A stretch of 64,000 nt of DNA from Escherichia phage UE-S1. Location of the stretch: sequence record ON568341.1. One strand, given 5' to 3'. Position numbers and translations under genes: made by a program. Numbering within the stretch: the first letter of the stretch is position 1; each line of letters begins with the position of its first letter. This document shows positions 3,953 through 64,000 of the stretch, one piece after another. The notes below the pieces were generated by a model. That model was not told the DNA's origin. It did no database searches and was given only the letters and a program-made list of their open reading frames with translations.

Positions 3953-3961
3953 CGGGTATTA

Positions 3962-4229
<268 letters not shown>

Positions 4230-4273
4230 GATTCCCGATTCAGTAGTTTTAAAGCTGACCCGTATGTGCCTAT

Positions 4274-4373
<100 letters not shown>

Positions 4374-4374
4374 T

Positions 4375-4508
<134 letters not shown>

Positions 4509-4510
4509 TA

Positions 4511-4592
<82 letters not shown>

Positions 4593-4593
4593 G

Positions 4594-4626
<33 letters not shown>

Positions 4627-4631
4627 GTGCT

Positions 4632-4753
<122 letters not shown>

Positions 4754-4774
4754 TATCTTACTTTTAAACAAACT

Positions 4775-4848
4775 GCCTCAATAGCAAAATTGGTAATGCA
4801 CACGATTTGTAATCGTGAGATTTTTCCGTTCGAGTCGGAATTGGGGCA
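4775..4848 (+). tRNA. tRNA-Thr (anticodon TGT)
   Basis: Acceptor GCCTCAA/TTGGGGC (one G-U), anticodon stem CACGA/TCGTG with loop TTTGTAA, T-arm TTCCG-TTCGAGT-CGGAA; 6-nt variable loop. Confidence 0.65.
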
Positions 4849-4864
4849 CAAATAAAGGCACATT

Positions 4865-45167: not shown

Positions 45168-45203
45168 AATTCCCTCCCTTATTCATTATAATATATTTAA
45201 TAC

Positions 45204-45234
45204 AAAAAAGAAAAGCCAGTACTTGAGTACTGGC
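45204..45234 (-). terminator. inter-cassette hairpin plus T-run
   Basis: GCCAGTACT-TG-AGTACTGGC. Confidence 0.55.
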
Positions 45235-45240
45235 ATTATG

Positions 45241-46350: not shown

Positions 46351-46387
46351 AACTAAAATCTCCATATAATAATTATAATGTATTTAC

Positions 46388-46420
46388 AAAAAAATACCAG
46401 CACATATTTCAGTACTGGTA
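46388..46420 (-). terminator. inter-cassette hairpin plus T-run
   Basis: TACCAG..AGTACTGGTA stem with T7 on minus strand. Confidence 0.5.
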
Positions 46421-46425
46421 TAATG

Positions 46426-47607
46426 TTATGGTAAAATAATAGCTTGTAACGAACTCATACCCAATGTTGGAACACTCGCCTGTGGTGCTGGAGAATTCAA
46501 TTTTGGTGATGAAACCGCATATGACATTCCTGAACCCAAATCTGGATCAAAAACTACAGCACAATAATTCCCACTATATATAAGTCCATTCTTGTATCCT
46601 TGTGCACTTTGAATGCATTTCGTGAACGTACCAATATCTGTAGTGGCATTTATTAAGTTCCTCCCACGATAACCGCAGGTGTATATGAAATTATCATCGC
46701 CTATGTACATACTAGAATCCCCAGAAGAACTACATAGATACGACATATAAGCACGCATGTTTTTAGGAGCAACTGACAATGTACCTGCATAGAATTTATT
46801 ATTCGAACCCGTAATATTACCATCACCCAATGCACCAAAACTTCCCCAGCCAGTACCGTAATATCTCTTATCACTCAAAAATATAATACAGTTGTTATTA
46901 CACATCTTGATTTGATATATCAATGAAGGATCAATCCCAGGGAATGATTCAGTGAATGTTAGAACAGCCGGATCAGTACTAGCATTACATTGATGATATG
47001 TATTAGTACCAGCGGACAAGATTGTTCCATTAGCTAACAGAATTCTCGCAGTACCAGTACCAGCAGTACAAGCAACTGCACTTCCTGCACTTCCGGTGTA
47101 TATTTGTCTGAAAGTAAAGAAACCAACAGTTTTACTTCCCTGCCCACTCCAACCAGTATTATCAACTCCACACGCCCATACTGAACCATCTTGCATGATC
47201 ATCATTACACCAAAGCGTTCTATTGAAATATAAACAATCTTCGTTGTATCAACTGCACTAAATCTAGAAGTTATATCAGTCCATACCTTAACACTTACCG
47301 CCGTCGCACTGGAAGTAGGATCTTCACCAGCTATCATTATCCTCCCATTGTTAGTAAGATACATTGTCTGACTATAACCAGTACTACAAAACTTAACACT
47401 ATCAGTCTCTGGAACTTTTAACCACTCGTTGTAACGTGTTACGTTAGTGTTATTACCTAACTGATAATAGTTATTCATCCCAGATACATATAACACACCA
47501 TCCTTTATTAAACTATAAGTCGCACTATAGTCACTACAGGTATAACGTGTACCCACAGGTGGCTCAACGACGTTCCCGTACTTAACCATTCTCCCAAAAG
47601 GTAACAT
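46426..47607 (-). CDS. RCC1-like beta-propeller protein with conserved N-terminus (array member 3)
   Basis: MLPFGRMVKYGNVVEP; repeats NNYYQLGNN, DNTGWSGQGS, GSFGALGDGN. Confidence 0.7.
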   Translation of the reverse strand: MLPFGRMVKYGNVVEPPVGTRYTCSDYSATYSLIKDGVLYVSGMNNYYQLGNNTNVTRYNEWLKVPETDSVKFCSTGYSQTMYLTNNGRIMIAGEDPTSSATAVSVKVWTDITSRFSAVDTTKIVYISIERFGVMMIMQDGSVWACGVDNTGWSGQGSKTVGFFTFRQIYTGSAGSAVACTAGTGTARILLANGTILSAGTNTYHQCNASTDPAVLTFTESFPGIDPSLIYQIKMCNNNCIIFLSDKRYYGTGWGSFGALGDGNITGSNNKFYAGTLSVAPKNMRAYMSYLCSSSGDSSMYIGDDNFIYTCGYRGRNLINATTDIGTFTKCIQSAQGYKNGLIYSGNYCAVVFDPDLGSGMSYAVSSPKLNSPAPQASVPTLGMSSLQAIILP

Positions 47608-47642
47608 AATAAAATCTCCGTAATTAAATTATATAGTATTTA

Positions 47643-47676
47643 CAAAAAATACCAGTACATATTTCAGTACTGACCT
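47643..47676 (-). terminator. inter-cassette hairpin plus T-run
   Basis: CAGTAC-loop-GTACTG palindrome with T-run. Confidence 0.5.
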
Positions 47677-47680
47677 ATTA

Positions 47681-48802
47681 TTAAAAGGGCAACGGTAACT
47701 CAGTAAAAGTACTTACGTCCGGTAAACCATACATTAAATTAGCATCACCACAGTAATACCACTTCGTAGAATCATGTACCACCGATAAACGCTGTGCACA
47801 TAACACTTCCTGTATGTCATTAAACACCATCGGGACTAACTCATATGTATCTGCAAATGAAGATTCACTACCACTCGCATGAAAAGTATTTGTCCCAGCA
47901 TAAAATAACTGATTAGTGTTCTTACCCACAGCAAATGTTATCAAAACCCCATCATTCTCCCATAAAGAAGAAAACTTATCAACACTACCAGAAAGCTCTG
48001 TGTAAGTACTCGTAATGGCACTCGCCGCCGCCGCATTACCCATCTGTTTATTCAAGTTCTGTCCAGCAATAAAATATCTCGTTCGTGCACTAGAATCAGT
48101 ATATAATAACCCAGTGTTCGTAGTCATCATTCCAATGTCCTTAATCGTCATATCAGTCTGTGAATAACTTAGATACGAAGTTAAATTAACATTATTACCC
48201 AACGAACCGTTAGAACTCATGCCACAACGATGTAATATACCACTTGTATCAACGTAGATAGTACTAACTAAACTCGTATACAACTCTTGTACATTATTCG
48301 CAATAAACACAGCAGTCGCCTTATTACTAACCCCACCAAATGATAGGTTATTATCAAATCCCTTAGCGTATAATTGATTATTAGTAGTCAATAATCCAAT
48401 CGTGTAATAAGACATTTTCATATCCCTTACTGTACTCAAATCTACTGCCCCAAATTGATACGTAACATCTGTCCATTTGAAAATCTGTGCACTACCAACA
48501 CCACCCGTTTCAAACCATTTGTCACCACAGTACAATATGCGATTATCCTTAGTAAAGATAACTGTTAACAATCCACTACCACACGCAAACTTTACATCAC
48601 TTCTAACCTTCGTCCAATCAAGTACATAGGTAGTGGTGTTATTACCTATACCTAACTTGCCATAACGGTTATAACCACGCACCCATAAATCACCACTCTT
48701 AGTAATTAATAGTAATGCGTCTCCTGTACTTATTATTCGAAATCCCGAACTAGGATCAGGGGCAATATTCCCGTACTTAACCATTCTCCCAAAAGGTAAC
48801 AT
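47681..48802 (-). CDS. RCC1-like beta-propeller protein with conserved N-terminus (array member 2)
   Basis: MLPFGRMVKYGNIAPDP; repeats GYNRYGKLGIGNN, SSNGSLGNN. Confidence 0.7.
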   Translation of the reverse strand: MLPFGRMVKYGNIAPDPSSGFRIISTGDALLLITKSGDLWVRGYNRYGKLGIGNNTTTYVLDWTKVRSDVKFACGSGLLTVIFTKDNRILYCGDKWFETGGVGSAQIFKWTDVTYQFGAVDLSTVRDMKMSYYTIGLLTTNNQLYAKGFDNNLSFGGVSNKATAVFIANNVQELYTSLVSTIYVDTSGILHRCGMSSNGSLGNNVNLTSYLSYSQTDMTIKDIGMMTTNTGLLYTDSSARTRYFIAGQNLNKQMGNAAAASAITSTYTELSGSVDKFSSLWENDGVLITFAVGKNTNQLFYAGTNTFHASGSESSFADTYELVPMVFNDIQEVLCAQRLSVVHDSTKWYYCGDANLMYGLPDVSTFTELPLPF

Positions 48803-48837
48803 ATTTTCCTCCTTTATTCATTATACTATATTTAATA

Positions 48838-48869
48838 CAAAAAGAAATGCCAGTATCAAGTACTGGCAT
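48838..48869 (-). terminator. inter-cassette hairpin plus T-run
   Basis: ATGCCAGTA-TCAAG-TACTGGCAT. Confidence 0.55.
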
Positions 48870-48875
48870 ATTAAT

Positions 48876-50024
48876 TCATTGTATAAATGACATATCTACT
48901 TCTGTATAATTAAGAACGTTCTGTCCAGAAATACCACCCATTACTACTATTGCAAGGCCACAATAATATAATTTTCCAGTATCCGTAAGTATAAGTGATC
49001 CAGATGGACTGCGTACCAAATCACACGAACTATTAAAAGAAGTATAAGAAGGAGTATAGGAGTACTGATTATTATTATTACCAACACCTAATTGCCCAAA
49101 CCCATTCGATCCAGAAGCATATAGAACTTCATCTGCTTTGACAATATGTGATGCCATGTTACCAACACAAGTATATAGAGTATAAACTCCTGAACTCAAT
49201 AATGTCGGAGTTTTATATTGTATATCTGTAGATGTAGAAGTACCACCTGTACCAAATTCGTTCCCATATTGTGCACCGAACTGTTTGCCACAAGCGTACA
49301 AATTATTATCCGATTTGATAAAAAATGTACTCTGATAACTTACATTAAAATCTATAACATCCGAAGAAATCATCGTCACCCCAGTAATAGAAGTTTGATT
49401 ACCCGTGCCCAACTGGTAGTAATAGTTAAAACCACAACCCCATAAAGTATTATCTTCTCGCAAATAAATGTTACCAACTGCCTTTTTAACCGAAGTTATA
49501 GTATCTACTCTTTTGAATGTGTTAAAAGAATTAATGTTTGTACCATCACCAAATGATGATATGTTCGATATATTGTTAACTCCACAACAATACAATGTAC
49601 CATCTTTTGTTATCAAATTCACCTTCATATCATAAAAACTACTCATGTATTTTATATCAGAAACATTAACACCACTTGATGTTATCCACGTAGTACAGTC
49701 CGTCCACAAAGTTTTTCTATCAGTTACACCAGTGAATGCCTTCGTGTTACCAGTGATAAAAACTTTTCCAGTACCTTTCTCTTCATACAATTGACAATCA
49801 CTACTGTTATCTTCCAATAGAACTCGTTTAACATTCTCCGCACAAAGAATAAATTTACTCGATGCTACACCTGTACCAGTACCCCAATTCGTCGCAGAAG
49901 ATGCATACAACTTATCAGTATAAGTATCATGAAGATACATAGAATCACTGGAATATATTTTAAAACGCCCTTCTTTCTCAGGTATAATATTCCCGTACTT
50001 AACCATTCTCCCAAAAGGTAACAT
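48876..50024 (-). CDS. RCC1-like beta-propeller protein with conserved N-terminus (array member 1, most upstream)
   Basis: MLPFGRMVKYGNIIPE; repeats GFNYYYQLGTGN, GSNGFGQLGVGNN. Confidence 0.7.
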   Translation of the reverse strand: MLPFGRMVKYGNIIPEKEGRFKIYSSDSMYLHDTYTDKLYASSATNWGTGTGVASSKFILCAENVKRVLLEDNSSDCQLYEEKGTGKVFITGNTKAFTGVTDRKTLWTDCTTWITSSGVNVSDIKYMSSFYDMKVNLITKDGTLYCCGVNNISNISSFGDGTNINSFNTFKRVDTITSVKKAVGNIYLREDNTLWGCGFNYYYQLGTGNQTSITGVTMISSDVIDFNVSYQSTFFIKSDNNLYACGKQFGAQYGNEFGTGGTSTSTDIQYKTPTLLSSGVYTLYTCVGNMASHIVKADEVLYASGSNGFGQLGVGNNNNQYSYTPSYTSFNSSCDLVRSPSGSLILTDTGKLYYCGLAIVVMGGISGQNVLNYTEVDMSFIQ

Positions 50025-52983: not shown

Positions 52984-53042
52984 ATGTACTCCGGTTTAAT
53001 AGGACTAATATTCTTCTATGAATAATCATAAAGATTTCTACA
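52984..53042 (+). repeat. 59-bp near-identical direct repeat of 50728-50786 (gene-junction duplication)
   Basis: ATGTACTC(A/C)GGTTTAATAGGACTAATATTCTTCTATGAATAATCATAAAGATTTCTA present twice. Confidence 0.8.
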
Positions 53043-53197
53043 TAAGCCATCTGGATATAAACTCCCAAATGCTTATACTACTAAACACAATAGATTTCAA
53101 GGATAAGAAAAAGATCCAACAATTCATTGACCATACGGACCGTGCTGTGAACCAAAATTATATGTACTACATTCTCGCCCTAATATACAGGTACTAA
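53018..53197 (+). CDS. small protein, family C (59 aa, below track cut-off)
   Basis: MNNHKDFYISHL ... LALIYRY; preceded by duplicated junction. Confidence 0.5.
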   Translation: MNNHKDFYISHLDINSQMLILLNTIDFKDKKKIQQFIDHTDRAVNQNYMYYILALIYRY

Positions 53198-53198
53198 T

Positions 53199-53384
53199 AT
53201 GCATAGAGAATACTATATACAATTTGTTAAAGAAAACTACAAACACGCCGTCCCCGTAAACCCTTTAAATTCTAATGACCCAAGTACTATATTCTTGTTC
53301 CATGACGCAATACGTACAGTACTCAATACTAAAGATGAACAAGTGCAGTACGTATTCTTACTTTTACTTATATACAGACACTAA
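53199..53384 (+). CDS. small protein, family C
   Basis: MHREYYIQFV ... LLLIYRH. Confidence 0.55.
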   Translation: MHREYYIQFVKENYKHAVPVNPLNSNDPSTIFLFHDAIRTVLNTKDEQVQYVFLLLLIYRH

Positions 53385-53397
53385 AGCACTAACTAAT

Positions 53398-53598
53398 ATG
53401 AATAAAGAATATAAAGACTTCTATATAAGTAAACTAAAAGAAAATGAACAAGCATGGATTCAACCACTAATAATACTTCCATTTAATAGATATTCATTGA
53501 ACCGATGTACCGAGATTGCTATAGACCCTTGTCCTATTAAAGAGAATGTACAATACAATCAGTACTACTATATCTTAATGCTTATATATAGGAAGTAA
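53398..53598 (+). CDS. small protein, family C
   Basis: Track ORF trimmed; MNKEYKDFYISKL ... LMLIYRK. Confidence 0.55.
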   Translation: MNKEYKDFYISKLKENEQAWIQPLIILPFNRYSLNRCTEIAIDPCPIKENVQYNQYYYILMLIYRK

Positions 53599-54285
53599 TT
53601 AAACACATATAGACAGGGGAAGCTCCGTAGTGGAAGCATTATACAGGCTTTAACATATGTTGCATATGTTAAAATTCAGCCTGGACAAATGCGATCACTA
53701 GGATTCTCCCCAGGCTAAACCCCGTAACTCTACAGAGAAGCCAATAGCTTCTCTTTGTCATAGGTAGTCATAAGTAATCATATATAAACATTTAAGTAAT
53801 CATTCATACGCACGGTAGTGATTAGTATTGAGTACTAGAGTACAGGAATGTTCACGTTTAATCAAGAACGTAGCAGTACTGCCCCAAAAGTATTCAGTAC
53901 TGAAGGTGTCGATATCCCACTAAGTAGGCAGAGGAAGTCTGCCGTACTTTGTAGTTTCCAAGCTCCTTTTCCATTTTTCAAATTACATCAAATGTATTCA
54001 AAAGTAATCACGTAATGATTAGTACTGAATTATTACTTTCACCTTAATTCCAAATACTCTTTTACCCTTCGGGGAAAATCCCATTACCCCTTGAGGCTCC
54101 AGCAAAAAGTTGGAAAGTACTCCATCGTAAATCTGGATCGTAAAAATTTTGGAGTACCTATGAAATAAAAGTTGGATCTTCGAAAGTTGAAATTTACGTT
54201 GGGACATATAGGATTGATGGGATATAATGAGTTTTGTAGAGATACAGATTATACGATTTCAGTACTGAATAATGAAAGAAAGCTA

Positions 54286-54313
54286 TTGACTTTATGATTC
54301 AGTACTGTATAAT
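54286..54313 (+). promoter_or_regulatory. sigma-70-type promoter (TTGACT-16-TATAAT) with no downstream ORF
   Basis: TTGACTTTATGATTCAGTACTGTATAAT inside ORF-free region. Confidence 0.5.
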
Positions 54314-54689
54314 GTTCTATATAGAGAGATGAGTTGCCGCAAACAATTCATTCACTCTACCTCCTGTCGTGAGACAGTACAGAAAAGATAGTTCCTCCTA
54401 TGGGTGGTACATCTTTTTATAACCTCTTTTTTCGTAATATAAACAGTACTGATATTAACAGAATGGTGTCAGTACTGATTTTAATCTAATACAATACACC
54501 CACCAGCTTGTGCTGGTGGATTATCCACTAACAGTATTCAGTACTACATGATAGTCTTCATCCTCCTAGGGTAACATAGTGAGGGCTATTGTGGGAGTAC
54601 TGAATACTCCTTTCACAAGATAGATCTATGGTATAGTACTGACGGATTTTGGGCGTAGTAAGCCTAGGTTAAATTTAGACGTAGAGATG

Positions 54690-54835
54690 TCTAGACCTCC
54701 AGATGGTTGGAAGTAAAGATGGCTATCCCTCTAGGCGGCTGGATGGCTAGATTTCTAGATGGCTGTACTGCTAGACGTTTGGACGGCTAAACGGCTAGAT
54801 GGTTACACGTCTGGAAGTATAGACGGCTAAATCAA
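54690..54835. repeat. iteron-like cluster of short degenerate direct and inverted repeats
   Basis: Recurring CTAGATGG, GGCTAGAT and AGACGGCTAAA units. Confidence 0.6.
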
Positions 54836-55452
54836 AATTTTTATTCTGTTTTTTCCAATAGTTCCCCTACCGCGTGAGGATGTTTTTCCCCGCAGTATCT
54901 GGTGTTAGATTTTTCTGAATCTGGAATCATTATCTAATAAACTGGGGGCAATGTCAACGGCCTGGATGAATATTTTTAAAAAATAATCTAGTACTAAATT
55001 TTGGGCGTAACTATGCACCCGGTGGGCTTGAGTCTTTCTCGACTTGATGAAATAATTATATCAGTACTGGAAAAATAAAGCAATACCATGGAAGCAAAAA
55101 AGTTTTAATTAATTTGCTTGCTATCCTGGGCCGGACTATGGTACTATATTTCAGTACTGAGAAAGTGCGTTTACCTGCTAGGGTGCGGGAGTGTATCCTT
55201 TTTTTATATCTTGAATTTTGGGCGTAATTCCGCACCCTCTGGGGTTTCCGCTTTCTCGCGTCTATGTAGTAATTATACGCTTTTTTAGTACTGAGTCAAT
55301 AGCCAAAAACAAAATAATTGAAAATAATTTAACGCGTTTAAACGGCCTGTAAAGCCCTGAAATGATTAGAATGGTGCAAATGTATAGCTTAGGTGTATTA
55401 ATGCGTTAGAATGCGTCTGAGGCCGTTTTACGTGGTATAGGGATGATTTAGT

Positions 55453-55548
55453 GGATTGATTCAGTACTGAATAATAGTACTCCTATATAGAAAGATAGTT
55501 CCCCTGGATTGATTCAGTACTGAATAATAGTACTCCTATATAGAAAGA
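55453..55548 (+). repeat. tandem direct repeat (~43-bp unit, 2 copies, period ~53)
   Basis: GGATTGATTCAGTACTGAATAATAGTACTCCTATATAGAAAGA twice. Confidence 0.8.
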
Positions 55549-55579
55549 AAACTATTTTAAAAGTATTTGTAGAAAGTAC

Positions 55580-55607
55580 TTGCACAGTACTGAAAAAAGC
55601 GTATAAT
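55580..55607 (+). promoter_or_regulatory. early-type sigma-70 promoter (TTGCAC-16-TATAAT) followed by 5-prime stem-loop 55624-55636
   Basis: Conserved AGTACTTGCA..GCGTATAATGTTTTACATC module then GGGAA-CAC-TTCCC. Confidence 0.6.
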
Positions 55608-55661
55608 GTTTTACATCGAGAGCGGGAACACTTCCCTACTCACTTTTAAGAGATTAAAACG

Positions 55662-56024
55662 ATGGCGACTCAAATCACTAAAATCATTGCTAACCTGGTT
55701 AACTTCCGCGACGATATGAAAGATCTTCCGGCGGCAACGGTTAAAACTCACATTGACGCATACCGCGAACTGATTAAAATGTTGCCGCTTAAGCGTGAAC
55801 AATACGCCGCTAAACTGATGCTTGATGCGATGATCCATAAGATGATCGCCAGTGATTTGACGATGGTTTATCAGTATATGGGCGAAAATTTCGCGGTGTA
55901 TAGTAAACCAGTACCAGGAATGGAAAGTACAGAAGTATTACACGGTTTAAATTTAAAACAAGATGCATGGGATAATATGCCTCGTTTCCTGGTATGGGCT
56001 GACAGTGGCAAAATTTACGAATAA
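55662..56024 (+). CDS. hypothetical protein (120 aa)
   Basis: Track ORF; own promoter and 5-prime hairpin. Confidence 0.6.
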   Translation: MATQITKIIANLVNFRDDMKDLPAATVKTHIDAYRELIKMLPLKREQYAAKLMLDAMIHKMIASDLTMVYQYMGENFAVYSKPVPGMESTEVLHGLNLKQDAWDNMPRFLVWADSGKIYE

Positions 56025-56037
56025 GTTAAAAATTAGT

Positions 56038-56065
56038 TTGACAGTACTGAATAAAAGCGTATAAT
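56038..56065 (+). promoter_or_regulatory. early-type promoter (TTGACA-16-TATAAT) followed by stem-loop 56078-56096
   Basis: TTGACAGTACTGAATAAAAGCGTATAAT then GTGGGGAA-TAG-TTCCCCAC. Confidence 0.6.
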
Positions 56066-56116
56066 GTTTTACATCAGGTGGGGAATAGTTCCCCACTATA
56101 TAAGAGGATTAAAAAA

Positions 56117-56356
56117 ATGGCTAAATCAAAAATGTTCTTAGGTCACAAAAACAAAACTCATTGGAATGTAAGCCTGTGGATTAATAACGATGAGGGATTG
56201 TATCGGTTGGCCCTGGACTTTATTGCCGCCCATACTAATCGCAATGATGCGGCCCGTCATATGATGTTATTTTTAGAACAGACTGGACAAGATAAAACAC
56301 CGGACGGATTCAAATATAGCACTACTGCGATCCGTGCGGCGATGGTTGGAATGTAA
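56117..56356 (+). CDS. hypothetical protein, paralogue of 58157-58396
   Basis: Track ORF trimmed to ATG after AGAGGA; conserved GHKNKTHWNVSLWINN and PDGFKYSTTAIRAAMVGM. Confidence 0.55.
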   Translation: MAKSKMFLGHKNKTHWNVSLWINNDEGLYRLALDFIAAHTNRNDAARHMMLFLEQTGQDKTPDGFKYSTTAIRAAMVGM

Positions 56357-56442
56357 TAGAATTTATTTAAAGTACTATCATTTTTTTGCGATAGTACTTT
56401 ATAATAGTGTTTTATTCATACACCAACGATAAGGGCAACAGC

Positions 56443-56709
56443 ATGAATATTAAGTATTTTGCGACGCGTGAACAAGCTCGGATCGCCGCACGCCAGGACG
56501 GGGCAACGTTTAAAGATATGGGCGTACAATCGGAACGTGGTAAACGTTGGGCCATTGTAAAGCGTAGTACCGCCAGATCATTACAGTACTGGTTAGCGGC
56601 CTTAAAAAGTCCCGATAGTGTATCGCGTCGAGTGGTAGAAATAAAGCTCGACCGAAAGGGCAACCGCGTGACTGTGTACCGTACTAAAAAGATTGCAGTA
56701 CTTGAATAA
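56443..56709 (+). CDS. hypothetical protein
   Basis: Track ORF trimmed to ATG at MNIKYFATRE. Confidence 0.45.
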   Translation: MNIKYFATREQARIAARQDGATFKDMGVQSERGKRWAIVKRSTARSLQYWLAALKSPDSVSRRVVEIKLDRKGNRVTVYRTKKIAVLE

Positions 56710-56716
56710 AAAGTAC

Positions 56717-56744
56717 TTGCAAACTATGTTTAAAGGCGTATAAT
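56717..56744 (+). promoter_or_regulatory. early-type promoter (TTGCAA-16-TATAAT) followed by stem-loop 56759-56775
   Basis: TTGCAAACTATGTTTAAAGGCGTATAAT then GCGGGAA-CTC-TTCCCGC. Confidence 0.6.
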
Positions 56745-56796
56745 GTTTTACATCGAGAGCGGGAACTCTTCCCGCCTATAACCTGGAGTAATAAAA

Positions 56797-57027
56797 ATGA
56801 CTAATATGTATATGACTGAAGTTAAAACCGTAAAAGATACTACCACGAATAAAACTACTTACTTACAGCGGATCTGTGGTGTATGGCAACGTATCAGCAA
56901 ATCAAAGTACTTTAAATTAACATCATATGCAAACCGTTCGGATTCATTCAGTACTGAAATAAAAGGTAATAAAGTACACCAATACGGCACTTATTATTAT
57001 TACAGCCTGGACGCGATTGCAGTATAA
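56797..57027 (+). CDS. hypothetical protein (76 aa)
   Basis: Track ORF after promoter, hairpin and GGAG RBS. Confidence 0.55.
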   Translation: MTNMYMTEVKTVKDTTTNKTTYLQRICGVWQRISKSKYFKLTSYANRSDSFSTEIKGNKVHQYGTYYYYSLDAIAV

Positions 57028-57278
57028 TCATATTTTTTGAAAAATTTACAATTGCCGGTATTGACTTATTTTGTCAGTACTGGCATAATGTATTCATTGG
57101 CAGATAAGCCGTAGCCCATAGGGTGCGGGAGTGTATCTATAGAAAAATTAGTTTAGTATAGTTACAATTGTGCACCCGGTGGGTTAGCTGTTGTCATGGG
57201 GTATATTATGCCAGTACTTGATAATGCTGTCAATACTTTTTTTACTATTCAGTACTGAAAACTATTTTTAAAAAGTAC

Positions 57279-57306
57279 TTGCTAACTATGTTTAAAGGCG
57301 TATAAT
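57279..57306 (+). promoter_or_regulatory. early-type promoter (TTGCTA-16-TATAAT) with stem-loop but no ORF
   Basis: Promoter and ACGGGG..CCCCGT hairpin with no ATG before the next promoter. Confidence 0.5.
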
Positions 57307-57394
57307 GTTTTACATCAGGACGGGGAACGAAATAAGTAACCCCGTTAAGTAGTCCAGGAGTAAGACATACGAAAAACTCCCCTGATAAAATAGT

Positions 57395-57422
57395 TTGACA
57401 AATGTTTTTAAAAGCGTATAAT
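57395..57422 (+). promoter_or_regulatory. early-type promoter (TTGACA-16-TATAAT)
   Basis: TTGACAAATGTTTTTAAAAGCGTATAAT upstream of 57455 gene. Confidence 0.6.
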
Positions 57423-57454
57423 ACTTACATCAACTACTGAATGAGGGTTACAAA

Positions 57455-58066
57455 ATGAAAACTATCACTACTACTACTTTTGTTATGGCTTTTTCTGAAC
57501 TGAACGCAGAACAAAAAACGGCGGCTATCGAACTGGTTCGGGATCGTGAGCGTTCATGTGAGGATAATTTCTTTGCTGAGGGCGTTATCGAGTACTATAA
57601 AGAAACAGTACTACCAGAATACGGCATAGATGAAGCTGAATTGCAATACAGTGGTTTTTGGTCGCAAGGTGACGGTGCATCAATCAGTACTGACAGCGTG
57701 GACGCGGAGAAGTTTTTACGCAAGATTAAAGCGTTAACGAAATATCGTTCTATCCGTCACTTGTTGAATGAAGATGATTTGGCAATGAGTGTAGAACGTT
57801 CACACTCTCGCTACGCACACGAAAACACGGTAAGCGGTTGCGTTGATACTCGCTACACTGATTTAACTGTAAAACAAGCGGCACTTGCTGATGACCTGGA
57901 AAACTTACTGACTGATGCGATCCGTGAATTATCTCGTAAGTTGTACCGTGATTTAGAGAATGCATATGAGGATCAATTCACTACTGAAAACATTACTGCA
58001 CTGATTGAGGGTAACGAATATCAATTCAATGTTATTGATGGCGTAGTGGAATCAATCGAATATTAA
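57455..58066 (+). CDS. acidic hypothetical protein (203 aa)
   Basis: Track ORF with GAGGG RBS; D/E-rich. Confidence 0.6.
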   Translation: MKTITTTTFVMAFSELNAEQKTAAIELVRDRERSCEDNFFAEGVIEYYKETVLPEYGIDEAELQYSGFWSQGDGASISTDSVDAEKFLRKIKALTKYRSIRHLLNEDDLAMSVERSHSRYAHENTVSGCVDTRYTDLTVKQAALADDLENLLTDAIRELSRKLYRDLENAYEDQFTTENITALIEGNEYQFNVIDGVVESIEY

Positions 58067-58156
58067 TTCAAAAAGTACTTGTAAACTAAGTTTAAAAGCG
58101 TATAATACTTTACATCAAGGCGGGGAGTGGTTCCCCGCTCAAACGAGGATTTAAAA

Positions 58157-58396
58157 ATGGCTAGTACTAAAACTTACAACGGACACAAAAACAAAACTCA
58201 TTGGAATGTAAGCCTTTGGATTAATAACGGTGAGTCATTGTATCGGCTTGCACAAAGTTGCATCGCACAAAGTAGAACTAAAGATATTGCTGCGGAATGT
58301 ATGTACCGCAGATTAAAAGCCAACGGTACTACTACAACACCGGACGGATTCAAATATAGCACTACTGCGATCCGTGCTGCAATGGTTGGAATGTAA
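58157..58396 (+). CDS. hypothetical protein, paralogue of 56117-56356
   Basis: Track ORF trimmed to ATG after GAGGA; conserved N- and C-terminal blocks. Confidence 0.55.
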   Translation: MASTKTYNGHKNKTHWNVSLWINNGESLYRLAQSCIAQSRTKDIAAECMYRRLKANGTTTTPDGFKYSTTAIRAAMVGM

Positions 58397-58453
58397 TATT
58401 CAGTACTGAGATAATGGCGGGTAATAGTTCCCGCCTTTACTGAGGGTTATCTA

Positions 58454-58714
58454 ATGAGTAAAGTAATTAGCTATACAGCACTAAGCAAGACATTATCTAT
58501 TAGCCAGTGCACCGATGGTTATTGGCTATTTGATGAAACGCGTGGCATGAATTTAGCCATGCGTGCAAAAACTGCTGAGGCGGCGTATCTTGAAGCATTG
58601 GAATACTACCAGGAACGTTTAAAGGAAGTAGAAGAAGATTATAAAAGCCTCAAAGCGAAAGTAGATCATTTCGTCGGTCAATTCATCGAGGAAGACGACG
58701 ACAAACAATATTGA
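58454..58714 (+). CDS. hypothetical protein (86 aa)
   Basis: Track ORF after GCGGG..CCCGCC hairpin and GAGGG RBS. Confidence 0.55.
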   Translation: MSKVISYTALSKTLSISQCTDGYWLFDETRGMNLAMRAKTAEAAYLEALEYYQERLKEVEEDYKSLKAKVDHFVGQFIEEDDDKQY

Positions 58715-58800
58715 AAAAGTACTTGCAATTAGTTTTCAGTACTGTATAATGGTTTACATCAAAGGGAGAAATGGTTCTCCCTGGTAATGAGGAAAATAAA

Positions 58801-59022
58801 ATGGCTAATATCACTACTCTTTCCCAACTGGAAGCACTGGTGAAATCTATGCGGGAACATGCCGACAAAATCGGCGTACAAGATCCAGCCGTTTGCTTCT
58901 GCGACGAATTGAATGATGATACACTGGTAATAGCAGAAGTCCAGGACGTTTCTAACTATTCCTCGCGTTACACTGGCGGCGTAGCAAATAAAGGCGACTT
59001 CTGTTTATACCTTACAAAATAA
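58801..59022 (+). CDS. hypothetical protein
   Basis: Track ORF trimmed to ATG after promoter, GGGAGAAATGGTTCTCCC hairpin and GAGGAAAA RBS. Confidence 0.55.
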   Translation: MANITTLSQLEALVKSMREHADKIGVQDPAVCFCDELNDDTLVIAEVQDVSNYSSRYTGGVANKGDFCLYLTK

Positions 59023-59265
59023 CAACGCGGGGAGATAATAACTCCCCGTTACTTTTTCAGTACTGAATCATTTAATAGACGGATCTCGGCACCCGGTGGG
59101 TTAGTGACTGTTTCGTCTTGATGTAGTAATTATGCCAGTACTGGATGCACTTGTCAACAACTATTTTTCAAATACTTTTTATTAAAATACTTGCAATTAG
59201 TTTTTAAACGCGTATAATGTTTTGCATAGGGGGAGCGGTTCCCCTGGTAACTAAGGAATAAGAAA

Positions 59266-59502
59266 ATGCTCGAACAAATCAAATCAACGTCTGCGAATGT
59301 AACGGGAACTGTATCACACTTTACTAGTGATGAATCGCGTGGTGTTCCTTATTGTGCTGTACATGTAAACACTGATGGCAACTACTGGTTTACGGTTTAC
59401 GGATCATATTCATTTGGTCGGCCAGGACATCAAAAAATCCTGGATAAAGTACAGCCAACGGGTAAAAATATCACTGCTGAAATGTTTTATAAAAAATCAT
59501 AA
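59266..59502 (+). CDS. hypothetical protein (78 aa)
   Basis: Promoter, GGGGGAGCGGTTCCCC hairpin, AAGGAA RBS. Confidence 0.55.
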   Translation: MLEQIKSTSANVTGTVSHFTSDESRGVPYCAVHVNTDGNYWFTVYGSYSFGRPGHQKILDKVQPTGKNITAEMFYKKS

Positions 59503-59586
59503 AGTACTTGATAATAGTTTTTAGTACTGTATAATATTTTACATCGCAAGGGGGAGCGGTTCCCCCTGGTAACTAAGGATAATAAA

Positions 59587-59886
59587 ATGAAAATTGCAAT
59601 CATCGCCCTGGCTTTATCTGTTTCCTCTTTCGCTGTTAATGCGTCATTAGATGTAAGTAGTGAAAAATTCATTCAGTGCACTGTTGCAATGACCGATGAA
59701 AGTACTGGCGAGATTGTATTAAAGGATTTAGAGATCCAGCCGGAAGCATTTAAAAACGGCCCGTTCCATGAAGAAGACGAAAACGGTAGCACATCAATTT
59801 ATTATGATGCCAGTACTAAACGCGGTTCGGTCACTGTAATGGATACTGAGAAAGTAACGCATACCGGCGTTATTAATTGCCGTTGA
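59587..59886 (+). CDS. secreted small protein (signal peptide)
   Basis: MKIAIIALALSVSSFAVNA; promoter and hairpin upstream. Confidence 0.6.
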   Translation: MKIAIIALALSVSSFAVNASLDVSSEKFIQCTVAMTDESTGEIVLKDLEIQPEAFKNGPFHEEDENGSTSIYYDASTKRGSVTVMDTEKVTHTGVINCR

Positions 59887-59907
59887 TAGATACTACGGGG
59901 TAACATC

Positions 59908-60138
59908 ATGACTAAGCGAATTGTTTTACTTAACGAAAGCAGTACTACACAACTACTTAACGCCGTGCATTATGATATTGAAACGAGCGTTAATCTTATC
60001 AGTACTGTAGTACTGTTGGACACTGGAAAGGTCGCCAATGATAAAGCGATTGCAGGTATATTAACGGATCTTGAGCCTGGTAGCAGTGCACCAATAACGT
60101 TAAATGGTAAAGTGTTTAATATTTTACTCACTGATTAA
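59908..60138 (+). CDS. hypothetical protein (76 aa)
   Basis: Track ORF followed by terminator. Confidence 0.5.
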   Translation: MTKRIVLLNESSTTQLLNAVHYDIETSVNLISTVVLLDTGKVANDKAIAGILTDLEPGSSAPITLNGKVFNILLTD

Positions 60139-60144
60139 GTACAT

Positions 60145-60166
60145 AGCCCACCTGGTGGGCTTTTTT
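60145..60166 (+). terminator. intrinsic terminator
   Basis: AGCCCAC-CTG-GTGGGCT plus T6. Confidence 0.7.
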
Positions 60167-60371
60167 GTTTTTGTAGTATCGTAGTACTGAGATACTTTGA
60201 AAATAGTTTTAAGAAAGTAGTTGACATTACCGCAGAAAAGCGTAGAATGTATTACATCAAGACGGGGAGCACTAAGTAGACCGCCAGTAAGTCGAACGAA
60301 AAACTGGACACGTCGAGAAAACTTTGATACACTAATAAACGTAAACTAAACTTTAATTGAGGATTTATAAA

Positions 60372-60854
60372 ATGGCTAATGTAAAATCATTTCTGAAAGC
60401 ACTGATTTCTAACGACACTGCTATTGCGGCTGAATTGCTGGCGGATCTGGATAGCGATACCATGAAAGCAGTACGCAACAATTTTAACATTGCGTACAGT
60501 GAAGCTAAAGAACTGCAAGCCAAAAAGATAGCAGAACTGGAAGAACAGAAAAAAGCCCGTGAAGAAGAACTACAAGCAACGATTGAAAGTATTCAGGCGG
60601 CGGTTGCAGGGTTGGATCTGGAAGTAGTTATTGAAATGGCACATAAAGCACTGGCAGTTAAGTACGGGGAAGATAAGCCAGTAACTAAACCTAAAAAATG
60701 GATTCAGGAACGCGTAACGGTTGTTCTTGATAATGGCGAGGAACATTTAATTCCCGTGCGTGGTAACTGCATTGCGGTAGTTCTGGATGCTATCAAAGAA
60801 AGCGGATTGACTCGCGAGGAATGGATCGAAGCTCACCGCAAAATTGAAGCATAA
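60372..60854 (+). CDS. hypothetical protein (predicted coiled coil)
   Basis: Track ORF trimmed to ATG after GAGGA; promoter TTGACA..TAGAAT upstream. Confidence 0.55.
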   Translation: MANVKSFLKALISNDTAIAAELLADLDSDTMKAVRNNFNIAYSEAKELQAKKIAELEEQKKAREEELQATIESIQAAVAGLDLEVVIEMAHKALAVKYGEDKPVTKPKKWIQERVTVVLDNGEEHLIPVRGNCIAVVLDAIKESGLTREEWIEAHRKIEA

Positions 60855-60875
60855 CAATTAAAGTACTGAATCACT

Positions 60876-60902
60876 AGCCCACTTCTTATAGTGGGCTTTT
60901 TT
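60876..60902 (+). terminator. intrinsic terminator
   Basis: AGCCCAC-TTCTTATA-GTGGGCT plus T6. Confidence 0.65.
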
Positions 60903-61129
60903 GTGTTTATCGTTTACCAGTCCACTAGCACCGCCTAGAATCGATTCTAACGCATTAAACTGATTATCTGATGAATAGCCCTAGCTGGTGGCGTTAATGC
61001 CGTTAGAAAGCGATTGAGGACGTTTAAAGTATTTTGCAAAAAGTAATAAAAAGTACTTGCACGATTAAGAGATTAGAGTATAATTAATTACATCAAGACA
61101 AGACACCTTAACTAACTGAGGATATAAAG

Positions 61130-61282
61130 ATGAATACTTATGAACTGGATTGTTTCACTTTACAAGTAATGTCAGTATGCAGTAAAAAAGATTGGTCATC
61201 AAAGGAATTTAAAGCAGTTATTGCGTGTGCAAAACACGGCAAGACTATCAATGAAACGGCATCAATCATTGATAAACTTTAA
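61130..61282 (+). CDS. hypothetical small protein (50 aa, below track cut-off)
   Basis: ATG after GAGGATATAAAG; own promoter upstream. Confidence 0.45.
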   Translation: MNTYELDCFTLQVMSVCSKKDWSSKEFKAVIACAKHGKTINETASIIDKL

Positions 61283-61290
61283 AAAATAGT

Positions 61291-61319
61291 TTGACAATAG
61301 TTTTAAGTACTGCGATAAT
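61291..61319 (+). promoter_or_regulatory. early-type promoter (TTGACA-17-GATAAT)
   Basis: TTGACAATAGTTTTAAGTACTGCGATAAT. Confidence 0.5.
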
Positions 61320-61354
61320 ACATACATCAACTACTGAATAGGAATAAAAAAACA

Positions 61355-61582
61355 ATGGCTATCATCATTACTTACGTATCTGGTACTACTGGCACTGCTT
61401 CAACTGTTGCTGTAATTACTAATAAGAAAGGAGCGGAATTACATTTTGCAATGGATAATTGGGCCGTGAAGGAGTTCGGACCGTGGGCAAGTGTAGCATA
61501 CATTGAAACCTATCAAGTGCCATCGATTAGCTTAACTGATTTAGGTGTAGATCGAATCTTATGCCTGGATGAATTAATTTAA
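61355..61582 (+). CDS. hypothetical protein (75 aa)
   Basis: Track ORF. Confidence 0.5.
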   Translation: MAIIITYVSGTTGTASTVAVITNKKGAELHFAMDNWAVKEFGPWASVAYIETYQVPSISLTDLGVDRILCLDELI

Positions 61583-61668
61583 AAAAGTACTTGCAAAGTA
61601 AATCGAATAAAGTATAATACATTACATCAAGGGGAGAAAATGGTTCTCCCCACTAAGAGGAAACTAAT

Positions 61669-61812
61669 ATGAAAACTTGTCAATGTGGTAAAAAATCTAT
61701 TACTGGTTTGAAACGGGGCGTTGCACTTTGCCAGTACCATTATAATTTACAAGTATGGGGTAAAGAATGGGCCGATCAAGTGGAAGCAATTAAGAAAGCA
61801 AAAAGTAAGTAA
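61669..61812 (+). CDS. Cys-rich small protein (47 aa), possible zinc ribbon
   Basis: MKTCQCGKK...ALCQYHYN; promoter, GGGGAGAAAATGGTTCTCCCC hairpin and AGAGGA RBS upstream. Confidence 0.45.
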   Translation: MKTCQCGKKSITGLKRGVALCQYHYNLQVWGKEWADQVEAIKKAKSK

Positions 61813-61893
61813 AAATATTATCACAGTACTATTGACATAGATTGATAGTACTGGCATAATAGATTTTATCAAGACAACTAAGAGGAAATTAAA

Positions 61894-62238
61894 ATGGCTA
61901 ACATCAATACTATAGCAGCACAAAATATTAACCTGTCTTCTGTTGAAGTTGTACACATTGCCGCCCGGCGTTGGTTCCAGGCGTCTTATGGTAATACTTA
62001 TTTCTCTTTAACGGTAGATGTTGAAATCAATGGCGAATTTATTGAAGTAGTAAACGTGCCGTTCCAATATGGCTACGGGGATCATTTTGACACTGTAGCA
62101 ATGGAAGAATTTAGCAAGGTTATTAATATGGAAGGTAAAGAGTTTTTACGCGGTTCTTATCTTTCCCGTTTTTGCCGTGATAATAATATTACTGTTTATA
62201 GTTCTGTTAGTGATGTTAAACGCAAAAAAGATCTTTAA
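61894..62238 (+). CDS. hypothetical protein (114 aa)
   Basis: Track ORF; promoter TTGACA..CATAAT upstream, AGAGGA RBS. Confidence 0.55.
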   Translation: MANINTIAAQNINLSSVEVVHIAARRWFQASYGNTYFSLTVDVEINGEFIEVVNVPFQYGYGDHFDTVAMEEFSKVINMEGKEFLRGSYLSRFCRDNNITVYSSVSDVKRKKDL

Positions 62239-62318
62239 TTAGCTTTACTTTATGCAGATACTTTGATATAGTGTCTGCATAGGGGAAAGAAATTAAATCA
62301 ACTTAAGAGGATAGTAAA

Positions 62319-62588
62319 ATGAAAAATATCAGTACTTTAATCGATGCAGGCACACATGTTCGTCGGTCTATGGTTGCAACCAGTTCTACAAAACAAGTAG
62401 CGAGCGGTTATCTTGTATTTGTGCACGATGGAAAACTCCTGGAACGTTCAATCAATTTTGATGTTAAAAACAATTGCCGTTTTATTATCTTTAAGCGTGA
62501 GCAATATAAAATTGATTTACCAGCAAAGCCCATTAGTGGGGCGTACAACGTGCAATCATTGTTTGAGCGTCAACCATACACCTATTAA
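62319..62588 (+). CDS. hypothetical protein (89 aa)
   Basis: Track ORF after hairpin and AGAGGA RBS. Confidence 0.55.
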   Translation: MKNISTLIDAGTHVRRSMVATSSTKQVASGYLVFVHDGKLLERSINFDVKNNCRFIIFKREQYKIDLPAKPISGAYNVQSLFERQPYTY

Positions 62589-62639
62589 TCAAAACAACGT
62601 TAGCGGTCGATTTAGGCCGCTTATACTGGGGATTATATA

Positions 62640-62810
62640 ATGAATACTAATCAAGTACTGAACGAGATTGAAAGCATCATTAAACCGATGAAGCGTACTG
62701 ATGCAATGTTAACACCGGAAGAATGCCGCTTATATGAGCGTTACAGCGTCGAACAAGTCCAGGCAATGGCCCGTATCCGTCCGGTTGCCAGTACTGATAA
62801 GGCGGCGTAA
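62640..62810 (+). CDS. hypothetical small protein (56 aa, below track cut-off)
   Basis: ATG after GGGG; followed by TAATATG-coupled next gene. Confidence 0.4.
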   Translation: MNTNQVLNEIESIIKPMKRTDAMLTPEECRLYERYSVEQVQAMARIRPVASTDKAA

Positions 62811-62811
62811 T

Positions 62812-63021
62812 ATGCTTACTGTACAGGATAAGATCGACATCTTAAAGGTTAATATGTATGTGATTGATGCCGTACCTGGTAAAGTATTTGCATACGATGA
62901 CACCACTGTAAGCAATTTCTACTATAGCCAGGACGTGGGGGATCTTTCTGTACAGTCGGTTATTGAAAATGTAGTTAATGCAGCGTATGAGCATTTACTT
63001 TCAAATAGTACTTGCAATTAG
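62812..63021 (+). CDS. hypothetical protein
   Basis: Track ORF 62734 trimmed to ATG coupled to upstream stop. Confidence 0.45.
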   Translation: MLTVQDKIDILKVNMYVIDAVPGKVFAYDDTTVSNFYYSQDVGDLSVQSVIENVVNAAYEHLLSNSTCN

Positions 63022-63090
63022 TTTTCAGTACTGTATAATGTTTTACATGAAGGGGAGAAATAGTACTCCCCACTAATTAAGGAATATGAA

Positions 63091-63237
63091 ATGAAAGCAT
63101 CAAAAAAGAGTAATACTAAGAAAGCATGTTCACCTTTCGCTGGGGTATTCCCTTTACGTTTCGTTGATGAAGTGGTTTCCTACCCGCCGGGCCTTACTCC
63201 TGAGATGGTAGAAAGTTTGCGTAAATCTAAAAAATAA
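63091..63237 (+). CDS. hypothetical small protein (48 aa, below track cut-off)
   Basis: Promoter, GGGGAGAAATAGTACTCCCC hairpin and AAGGAA RBS upstream. Confidence 0.45.
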   Translation: MKASKKSNTKKACSPFAGVFPLRFVDEVVSYPPGLTPEMVESLRKSKK

Positions 63238-63318
63238 TACTTGCAATTAGTTTTTAGTACTGTATAATGTTTTACATGAAGGGGAGAAATGATTCTCCCC
63301 AAGAACAGGAGAAACAAA

Positions 63319-63471
63319 ATGAAACAATACAACGCTCGGTTTGATGTTACTATCGGCAACGGCAAAGGTCAATTCTCTTTCAGTACTCGTAAGAGTTATA
63401 CAGAAAACTTCTTGCGTAATTGTGCACTGACCGCCGCACAAATTAAACATTATTTTCAGGCTAAAAAATGA
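63319..63471 (+). CDS. hypothetical small protein (50 aa)
   Basis: Track ORF 63289 trimmed to ATG after AGGAGA; promoter and hairpin upstream. Confidence 0.5.
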   Translation: MKQYNARFDVTIGNGKGQFSFSTRKSYTENFLRNCALTAAQIKHYFQAKK

Positions 63472-63557
63472 AATCATTAGCTTATTATAGTTCGGCCCTG
63501 GTCGGTGCATTGATCGCGGCATTGTTAGTAGCTTATCTATTCTTTATGGTGATTTAA
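63468..63557 (+). CDS. possible 29-aa hydrophobic micro-protein
   Basis: ATGA overlap with previous stop; single TM-like helix. Confidence 0.3.
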   Translation: MKSLAYYSSALVGALIAALLVAYLFFMVI

Positions 63558-63695
63558 ATGAATCCTAACGGTATAATTTACAGTACTCCTAAAACGAAAG
63601 CAGATAAAGCTAAAGCACGTAAAGCGAAAGTAAAGGAATACATCAAGCAAGGCATGACACGAAAGGCGGCGATTCTAAAAGCTAAAAATAAATGA
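63558..63695 (+). CDS. hypothetical small basic protein (45 aa)
   Basis: ATG directly after previous stop (TAAATG); K/A-rich; followed by terminator. Confidence 0.4.
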   Translation: MNPNGIIYSTPKTKADKAKARKAKVKEYIKQGMTRKAAILKAKNK

Positions 63696-63702
63696 AAAAA
63701 GT

Positions 63703-63726
63703 GGTTGACTTCGGTCAGCCATTTTG
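63703..63726 (+). terminator. intrinsic terminator (weaker T-run)
   Basis: GGTTGAC-TTCG-GTCAGCC then ATTTTG. Confidence 0.55.
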
Positions 63727-63916
63727 CTATTATATAATCATTGAGAGATAGCTCACTAGCCCACGGGGTGCGGGAGTGTATCTATTATATAAGCATTGAG
63801 TACTGAAAACTATTTTAAAAGTATTTGCAGAAAGTACTTGCAAACTATCTCAATTGGCGTATAATGTTTTACATCGCAAGGGGAAACGGTTTCCCCTAGT
63901 AATAAGGAATAAAATC

Positions 63917-64000
63917 ATGACTATTGCAATTGTACAATCTAACTTTGAAAATGAAATCATCGCCCAAGCACTGCGTTTAAATGATGGTCGGGCCGAAATT
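63917..64000 (+). CDS. hypothetical protein, 5-prime partial (runs off window)
   Basis: Promoter TTGCAA..TATAAT, GGGGAAACGGTTTCCCC hairpin, AAGGAA RBS, ATG at 63917. Confidence 0.5.
   Translation, partial: MTIAIVQSNFENEIIAQALRLNDGRAEI

Follow-up and report, generated by a model that had tools for sequence, protein, structure and literature searches.

Mosaic DUF7249 genes in promoter-hairpin cassettes of a jumbo coliphage terminal repeat and their probable assembly by slot exchange and intragenic recombination

Promoter-early stem-loop (PeSL) cassettes have been described in T4-type phages (Arbiol et al., 2010, PMC2839356; Comeau et al., 2014, PMC4122927), and in the literature searched here they are described mainly for that group. 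Similar elements occur in Escherichia phage UE-S1, of which a stretch of 64,000 nucleotides (nt; sequence record ON568341.1), referred to below as the window, was analyzed. Two homologous genes of the DUF7249/phrog_871 family in this window, copy A and copy B, each lie behind a promoter and a hairpin of their own, and comparison with related phages suggests that the pair was probably assembled by exchange of cassette contents and by recombination within the gene. As in PeSLs, the cassettes are intergenic and contain a strong sigma70-like promoter with AT-rich upstream sequence, an adjacent GGGG...CCCC stem-loop, and, at the 3' end, a ribosome-binding site followed by the ATG of a small ORFan. 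Here as in the T4-type phages, the elements are densely repeated among ORFans in a hyperplastic region, and close relatives differ by insertion, deletion, or replacement of single open reading frames (ORFs), with crossovers between the -10 box, the stem-loop, and the ribosome-binding site. The locus differs from PeSLs in that it belongs to a Rak2-like jumbo phage and not to the Straboviridae, which places it outside the T4-type phages, in that its array lies in a direct terminal repeat beside the physical genome end, and in that its stem-loop always falls in the predicted 5' untranslated region (UTR) and lacks a U-tract, resembling a 5' hairpin of an mRNA more than a terminator. PeSLs as originally defined also include a stem-loop that works as a terminator or attenuator and mini-circles that arise when elements recombine. 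On their sequence features the cassettes are best described as PeSL-like, not as PeSLs sensu stricto.

The cassettes also recall the morons of Hendrix and Juhala, which are likewise single accessory genes, each equipped with transcription signals of its own, placed between other genes and patchily distributed; morons are, however, thought to insert by illegitimate recombination without conserved flanks, whereas the flanks here are repeated homologous elements. Among coliphages, Phapecoctavirus has a TTGACA-type -35 box and a hairpin, GAGAGCGGGAA..TTCCCGCC, similar to those of the window cassettes, and promoter-hairpin elements similar to those of the window are seen in Vequintavirus too. A further parallel is offered by the pre-early genes of phage T5, which, like the genes considered here, are small, have strong host-type promoters, and are found at the genome end within a long direct terminal repeat. 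Nothing in the present data points to a two-step DNA transfer, however, and no homology to the T5 genes was found, none having been sought.

Both genes are found exactly where an earlier note on this DNA had placed them (Table 1), and they are true homologues, well beyond short chance matches. Their proteins align without gaps, with 51 of 79 residues identical (65%; BLASTP E 3e-36), and share an N-terminal block (GHKNKTHWNVSLWINN..LYRLA) and a C-terminal block (TPDGFKYSTTAIRAAMVGM). At the DNA level these blocks form a 5' direct repeat (56113-56211 and 58153-58251, 83% identity) and a 3' direct repeat (56293-56358 and 58333-58398, 95% identity) at a spacing of 2040 bp, with similarity that runs from 4 nt 5' of the ATG to 2 nt 3' of the stop codon, whereas 53 of 87 nt differ in the middle of the gene (ORF nt 94-180). 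When the entire 64-kb window was searched by tblastn, no third copy came up, the next-best match having an E value of 0.19. Each gene also has a promoter and hairpin of its own; the hexamers match the consensus at 12 of 12 positions in copy A and at 10 of 12 in copy B, the spacer is 16 nt in both, and the AT-rich sequence AAAAAGTAC precedes both promoters. The earlier note had explained this arrangement as the duplication of a cassette followed by divergence; its picture of homologous paralogues with a divergent middle in separate promoter-hairpin cassettes was borne out, while the history that it proposed does not fit the content of the B slot in sister phages or the uneven ancestry of the gene.

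Copy A, whose cassette belongs to repeat family D1/D2, is found at one and the same position in each of the five related genomes compared (JNE01, G17, slurp01, fEgEco12, and 121Q), and its middle differs from those of A-type orthologues in the genus by just 1-8 nt. The B slot is variable. About 28 Asteriusvirus records match a query made of the copy B cassette at at least 90% identity; in G17, the slot holds an unrelated 88-amino-acid (aa) gene, and in slurp01 and fEgEco12 an unrelated 54-aa gene substitutes for copy B together with the next gene, of 86 aa. Collinearity with the window is lost at 58144 (G17) and 58159 (slurp01 and fEgEco12), between the hairpin and the ATG, and is regained at 58416 in the next hairpin (G17) or at 58703 in the next promoter (slurp01 and fEgEco12), so placed that the degenerate cassette 3' of copy B forms the right junction of the slot relative to G17. 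Phages Ecwhy_1 and fEgEco12 have an average nucleotide identity (ANI) of 97% (PMC13070987), and copy B is present in the former and absent from the latter. These alignments show that the content of the B slot has been exchanged among close relatives, with breakpoints within hairpin, ribosome-binding-site, and promoter elements.

The same comparison bears on the possibility that a cassette was copied in situ in an ancestral jumbo phage, diverged by point mutation, faster in the middle, and was later lost as copy B from some lineages and exported to Phapecoctavirus. The equal length of the genes, their gapless alignment, their position 2 kb apart on the same strand, and the roughly 28 Asteriusvirus records with copy B all agree with such a history, as does the middle of the protein, which throughout the family is under less constraint than any other part. 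The promoter and hairpin, however, were not copied along with the gene: between the A and B promoter regions, 38 of 60 positions agree, no better than arbitrary pairs of cassettes, and the copy B promoter is most similar to the promoter at 57270 (50 of 60 positions). The flanking homology expected of a tandem or segmental duplication of the cassette is missing, homology being confined to 56113-56358 and 58153-58398, and unrelated genes fill the B slot among relatives at 97% ANI. Together with the uneven divergence, the alternation of gene types at a single Phapecoctavirus locus, and the recombined haplotypes set out below, these observations make duplication in place quite unlikely.

Sequence divergence within the gene is strongly uneven. 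In the conserved blocks, the synonymous divergence (dS; Nei-Gojobori) between A and B is 0.22, which is within the range seen in these blocks among A orthologues of the genus (0.17-0.34) and below the value of 0.72 obtained against the A-type allele of Phapecoctavirus Ro121lw, whereas in the middle the nonsynonymous divergence (dN) is 1.05 and dS is saturated beyond computing. The parts of the gene therefore differ in age, and the uniform age expected of a tandem or segmental duplication is not seen. Codon usage gives the same picture: where A and B have the same residue, the same codon is used at 31 of 36 positions in the conserved blocks and at one of seven in the middle (31/36 in the blocks vs 3/9 in the rest of the gene, Fisher p = 0.003), the expectation at saturation from local codon usage being 15.1 of 36.

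The B-type middle is nearly identical across genera. It differs at one of 87 nt between the window and Phapecoctavirus vB_EcoM_3A1_SA_NWU, an unrelated phage of another subfamily with a genome of about 150 kb, at 1 nt between the window and JNE01, and at none between 3A1_SA_NWU and JNE01, while nine of the first 24 nt of the gene differ between copy B and its Phapecoctavirus 3A1_SA_NWU counterpart. Since the other cassette genes of the window have only 60-71% aa identity to their Phapecoctavirus and Vequintavirus homologues, the B segment must have moved recently. At one syntenic Phapecoctavirus locus with near-identical flanks, the gene is of type B (3A1_SA_NWU), type A (Ro121lw), or type C (PD06-like). 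In addition, two N-terminal haplotypes (MAKSKMFL and MA[S/I]TKTYN) and the A and B middles are seen in all four combinations. These comparisons show that the genes are mosaics, with ends of apparently recent common ancestry and middles that fall into discrete types (A, B, and C) separated by deep divergence.

Mosaicism could be imitated by old paralogues that never recombined, if their ends had been held constant by selection at the nucleotide level, as for an RNA element or a translation signal, or by extreme codon bias. The N-terminal block is rich in AAA and AAC, codons that an AT-rich genome would favor regardless, which fits this explanation; yet the blocks have a dS of 0.72-1.6 against Phapecoctavirus alleles with the same amino acids, so that their nucleotides are free to vary, the use of the same codon at 31 of 36 sites far exceeds the 15.1 expected, and the four-gamete pattern is incompatible with descent without exchange. 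Such a history is accordingly regarded as highly improbable.

The whole of the evidence is probably best explained by cassette-slot shuffling combined with intragenic recombination in a pair of genes that would encode small early effectors. A pool of DUF7249 allotypes would circulate among coliphages, and the lineage of UE-S1 would keep two of them in separate cassette slots. The repeated regulatory elements may have been the sites of a homologous recombination that brought the second allelic type into its slot, as in PeSL-type shuffling, and the ends of the ORF would later have been homogenized by gene conversion, or the middle swapped with the ends serving as homology arms. Several points weigh against this account. 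The block-wise dS values come from just 42 and 29 codons, the codon bias of an AT-rich genome could be partly behind the low dS of the ends, an original duplication deep within Asteriusvirus with later export of copy B might still underlie the pair, and the early timing of both genes is a prediction from promoter sequence and position. Over longer distances the type A middle is under purifying selection (dN/dS ~0.08-0.12), and there is no direct sign of ongoing positive selection; a ratio of about 0.1 argues that the middles would be discrete maintained types and not products of continuous positive selection.

Direct repeats 2 kb apart would be expected to recombine into an A/B chimera without the three intervening genes, and this structure is found in two metagenomic contigs from independent samples, L088 (ERZ1755837, 1551 nt) and L089 (SRR8638168, 1171 nt). 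The former carries the 120-aa upstream gene, a promoter region that mixes A-like and B-like sequence, and then the hairpin and N-terminus of A, and the latter has the promoter and N-terminus of A itself; in both, a junction inside the N-terminal block leads to the middle and C-terminus of B and to the downstream 86-aa gene. Among complete phage records none has this A x B deletion arrangement, and no record covers at least 80% of a recombinant contig in one place. Because the shared exact stretches measure just 32-41 nt and no complete record matches, the contigs may be either rare natural recombinants or assembly chimeras.

The window derives from an Asteriusvirus-type jumbo coliphage, the group (PBECO4, 121Q, G17, and phAPEC6) in which megablast places the region, with 96.8% identity to WPEC3 and 96.4% to JNE01, both of this type; the nearest records are classified as Asteriusvirus, in a taxonomy line without a family or subfamily rank. 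Position 1 of fEgEco12 aligns with window position 53923, and "Direct Terminal Repeats" is annotated across the copy B homologue in a related record, which together place both copies inside the left terminal repeat, by this alignment 2.2 kb (A) and 4.2 kb (B) inward of its start. In fEgEco12, copy A corresponds to g02, with one gene between it and the physical end. Since their promoters are of consensus type and they lie beside the genome end, both genes would be transcribed by the host RNA polymerase immediately upon entry of the DNA.

The promoter core GCGTATAATNNTTTACATC occurs 14 times (at most three mismatches) against 0.44 expected by chance, always on the plus strand and in the part of the window that begins at 55599. 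The cassette consensus consists of AAAAAGTACTTGCAA, 16 nt, TATAAT, gtTTTACATC, a GGGGA..TCCCC hairpin, a ribosome-binding site, and ATG. Hairpins are present in 12 of the 14 cassettes, with folding energies of -7.7 to -15.2 kcal/mol (-11.4 or stronger in 11 of them); they were judged by individual folds, differences in loop length having thrown a MAFFT alignment out of register. They begin roughly 6 nt after the predicted transcription start, and their stem sequences vary among copies. Since every hairpin lies 3' of the -10 box in the predicted 5' UTR and lacks a U-tract, a role in stabilizing or insulating the mRNA is suggested in place of termination. The general background to such a role is given by 5' stem-loops and RNase E.

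Both proteins belong to DUF7249 over their full length and above the curated cut-off: Pfam scores for PF23907 are 44.5 bits (copy A) and 50.7 bits (copy B), with a gathering threshold of 27 bits, and hidden Markov model (HMM) comparison with phrog_871 gives E values of 1e-28 and 6e-29 over residues 1-79. A family profile search of 1.84 billion representatives yielded 2659 clusters at 50% identity, nearly all of them stand-alone proteins of 70-100 aa, and in the few longer members (up to 624 aa) DUF7249 is the sole Pfam domain found. Homologues occur in Phapecoctavirus, Justusliebigvirus, and Vequintavirus, in Ralstonia Autographiviridae, in phages of Aeromonas, Klebsiella, Vibrio, and Pseudomonas, and in T4-like cyanophages. 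The presence of two copies per genome appears, from the records searched, to be limited to Asteriusvirus, and, to judge from record lengths, paired matching places in other records probably reflect terminal repeats of which both copies were recorded. Several records labeled "Campylobacter phage" (e.g., MG065644 and MG065650; 140-150 kb) contain DUF7249 alleles and cassettes that resemble those of coliphages, at 54-67% aa identity to copy B and, in MG065650, 71.6% identity at the nucleotide level; their host label is questionable, and they have the look of Phapecoctavirus or Vequintavirus genomes. No partner gene was conserved in more than seven of 79 IMG/VR loci, and a literature search on DUF7249, PF23907, and phrog_871 retrieved no papers.

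Across 258 family members, G9, W16, N17, V18, L20, W21, N24, Y29, T61, P62, D63, and G64 are conserved in at least 94%, whereas positions 33-44 and 47-60 are variable save for the periodic, buried-looking A45, A46, M49, L53, and G57. A near-invariant N-terminal block and TPDG loop around a variable middle are thus a trait of the DUF7249 family and not specific to this pair. AlphaFold2 predicts four helices (residues 13-24, 26-38, 42-56, and 69-76) and a small hairpin (60-66) with a predicted local distance difference test (pLDDT) score of 82. The family profile matched no solved structure even at E <= 10, and Foldseek with the predicted model found no significant fold match, E values being 3.4 or higher for PDB and 0.58 or higher for BFVD. 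The least secure step of the proposed explanation concerns function: the protein might be a small four-helix early effector, whose invariant polar N-terminal block and TPDG loop would contact a target conserved across Proteobacteria and Cyanobacteria, an assignment held with low confidence. The exposed surface of helices 2 and 3 would then differ by type, and two types might widen what the phage copes with. Taken further, the helix 2/helix 3 segment could be a swappable specificity module, its few discrete allotypes (A, B, and C) passing between unrelated coliphage genera through recombination in the conserved ORF ends, and the stacking of two of them in the terminal repeat of a jumbo phage broadening early counter-defense or host takeover, a proposal that is tentative and rather doubtful. 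A different function, a helix-turn-helix-like nucleic-acid-binding regulator in which the variable helix 3 would be the recognition helix and A and B would recognize different DNA or RNA sites, is considered unlikely.

The coordinates of the two cassettes, their genes, and the features around them are collected in Table 1. The ORFs behind the cassettes are small and unannotated. Eight further cassette proteins were scanned and none matches a Pfam family, and NCBIfam gave no match for copy A, copy B, or six neighboring proteins. The three genes between the paralogues match phrog_8127, phrog_5293, and phrog_5162, and promoters lie between the paralogues at 56717, 57279, and 57395.

Table 1. Features of the DUF7249 locus and its surroundings in the window
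Feature	Position	Strand	Basis
Inferred left physical genome end, start of the ~21-kb direct terminal repeat	53923		fEgEco12 alignment
Copy A regulatory cassette, AT-rich upstream; -35 TTGACA 56038-56043; -10 TATAAT 56060-56065	56029-56116	+	Promoter scan
Copy A 5'-UTR hairpin	56077-56097	+	Fold -14.2 kcal/mol, z -3.1
Copy A ribosome-binding site AAGAGGA	56102-56108	+	
Copy A, 79-aa DUF7249/phrog_871 protein, A-type middle	56117-56356	+	ORF list, BLASTP, Pfam, PHROG
Copy A, divergent middle: codons 32-60 (last part of helix 2, loop, helix 3)	56210-56296	+	A/B alignment; AlphaFold2 helices
Cassette gene, 88 aa, unrelated to A/B	56443-56709	+	ORF list
Cassette gene, 76 aa, unrelated to A/B	56797-57027	+	ORF list
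ORF-free stretch between paralogues	57030-57450	+	ORF list
Cassette gene, 203 aa, unrelated to A/B	57455-58066	+	ORF list
Copy B regulatory cassette; -35 TTGTAA 58079-58084; -10 TATAAT 58101-58106	58070-58156	+	Promoter scan
Copy B 5'-UTR hairpin	58119-58139	+	Fold -15.2 kcal/mol, z -2.2
Copy B ribosome-binding site GAGGA	58145-58149	+	
Copy B, 79-aa DUF7249/phrog_871 protein, B-type middle, replaceable slot	58157-58396	+	ORF list, BLASTP, Pfam, PHROG
Divergent middle of copy B	58250-58336	+	A/B alignment
Degenerate cassette 3' of B: GATAAT box, hairpin GGCGGG...CCCGCC, ribosome-binding site	58397-58453	+	Fold -18.1 kcal/mol, z -2.7
86-aa gene, replaced along with copy B in slurp01/fEgEco12	58454-58714	+	Collinearity

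Several of the surrounding elements depart from the standard cassette. Directly after the stop codon of copy A, at 56356-56420, an AT-rich perfect hairpin, AAAGTACTATC-N10-GATAGTACTTT (-18.3 kcal/mol, z -3.8), overlaps the TATAAT box of the next gene, unlike the GC hairpins of the other cassettes. Within the ORF-free stretch, a full promoter-hairpin cassette with a longer hairpin (GGACGGGGAAC...CCCCGTT...) at 57279-57340 is followed by neither a ribosome-binding site nor an ORF; a deletion may have emptied this slot, or the cassette may be the source of a non-coding RNA. A second promoter at 57395-57422, with 12 of 12 hexamer matches, drives the 203-aa gene. The same stretch contains a repeated non-coding element (57058-57236), with related copies at 55006-55071, 55223-55288, and 59080-59145, in which a GCACCCGGTGGG core adjoins CAGTACTG and a CATAAT or TATAAT box. 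Facing sigma70-like promoters lie at 57061-57089 (plus strand) and 57233-57205 (minus strand), 109 nt apart, with 10-11 of 12 matches and extended -10 boxes, which suggests that small convergent or antisense RNAs may be made, with minus-strand promoters back-to-back with the plus-strand cassette promoters. The element has no Rfam or tRNA match, and short ORFs are annotated there in some records. More broadly, an Rfam scan of 53000-64000 and a tRNA scan of the whole window gave nothing relevant within 53-64 kb.

Homologues with 60-71% aa identity to the 120-aa gene at 55662, the 78-aa gene at 59266, and the 86-aa gene at 58454 are found in Phapecoctavirus, in Vequintavirus, and in a 153-kb IMG/VR viral contig, which points to an early accessory gene pool that would be common to several coliphage genera. 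A 99-aa ORF at 59587-59886 has an N-terminus resembling a signal peptide and matches neither Pfam nor NCBIfam; its region is 97.6% identical in nucleotide sequence to g10 of fEgEco12, annotated as "protein spackle" (a T4 superinfection-exclusion protein). Around the genome end itself, 2 kb (53600-55600) is without an ORF of at least 70 aa and includes position 53923, which matches the experimentally determined left end of fEgEco12; the palindrome CAGTACTG is abundant there, and an exact 44-nt direct repeat is found at 55452-55495 and 55505-55548. Packaging or terminal-repeat boundary signals probably sit in this stretch. Just ahead of the boundary, the minus strand of 44025-50024 contains five successive ORFs of 373-393 aa that look like a tandem array of paralogues, and multi-copy RCC1-like genes (121Q_234-248) have been described in this phage group (CBB paper). 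At the start of the window (71-4849), five tRNA-like genes were called, among them one with a four-base anticodon call (tcat) and an unusual tRNA-Ser(ACT), and these two could be ARAGORN miscalls or unusual phage tRNAs.

The mechanism proposed for the pair, modular cassette shuffling with intragenic recombination, is of a known kind, though new in its setting. It leaves present views of phage evolution as they are, and the locus is a fairly ordinary case of phage gene shuffling, of modest interest. It nevertheless provides a clean sequence-level case in which seeming duplicates of a phage gene would have been built by slot exchange and intragenic recombination and not by local duplication. It also suggests that PeSL-type cassettes exist outside the T4-type phages, in the terminal repeat of a Rak2-like jumbo phage that would have a gene pool in common with Phapecoctavirus and Vequintavirus. 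DUF7249 is a reasonable target for functional work: the family has more than 2600 clusters at 50% identity, combines an invariant polar motif with middles of discrete allelic types, and in this phage lies close to the physical genome end, preceded by a promoter of host type. If the segment of helices 2 and 3 does act as a specificity module, the conserved ends of the ORF would be the functional core of the protein and its built-in homology arms alike.

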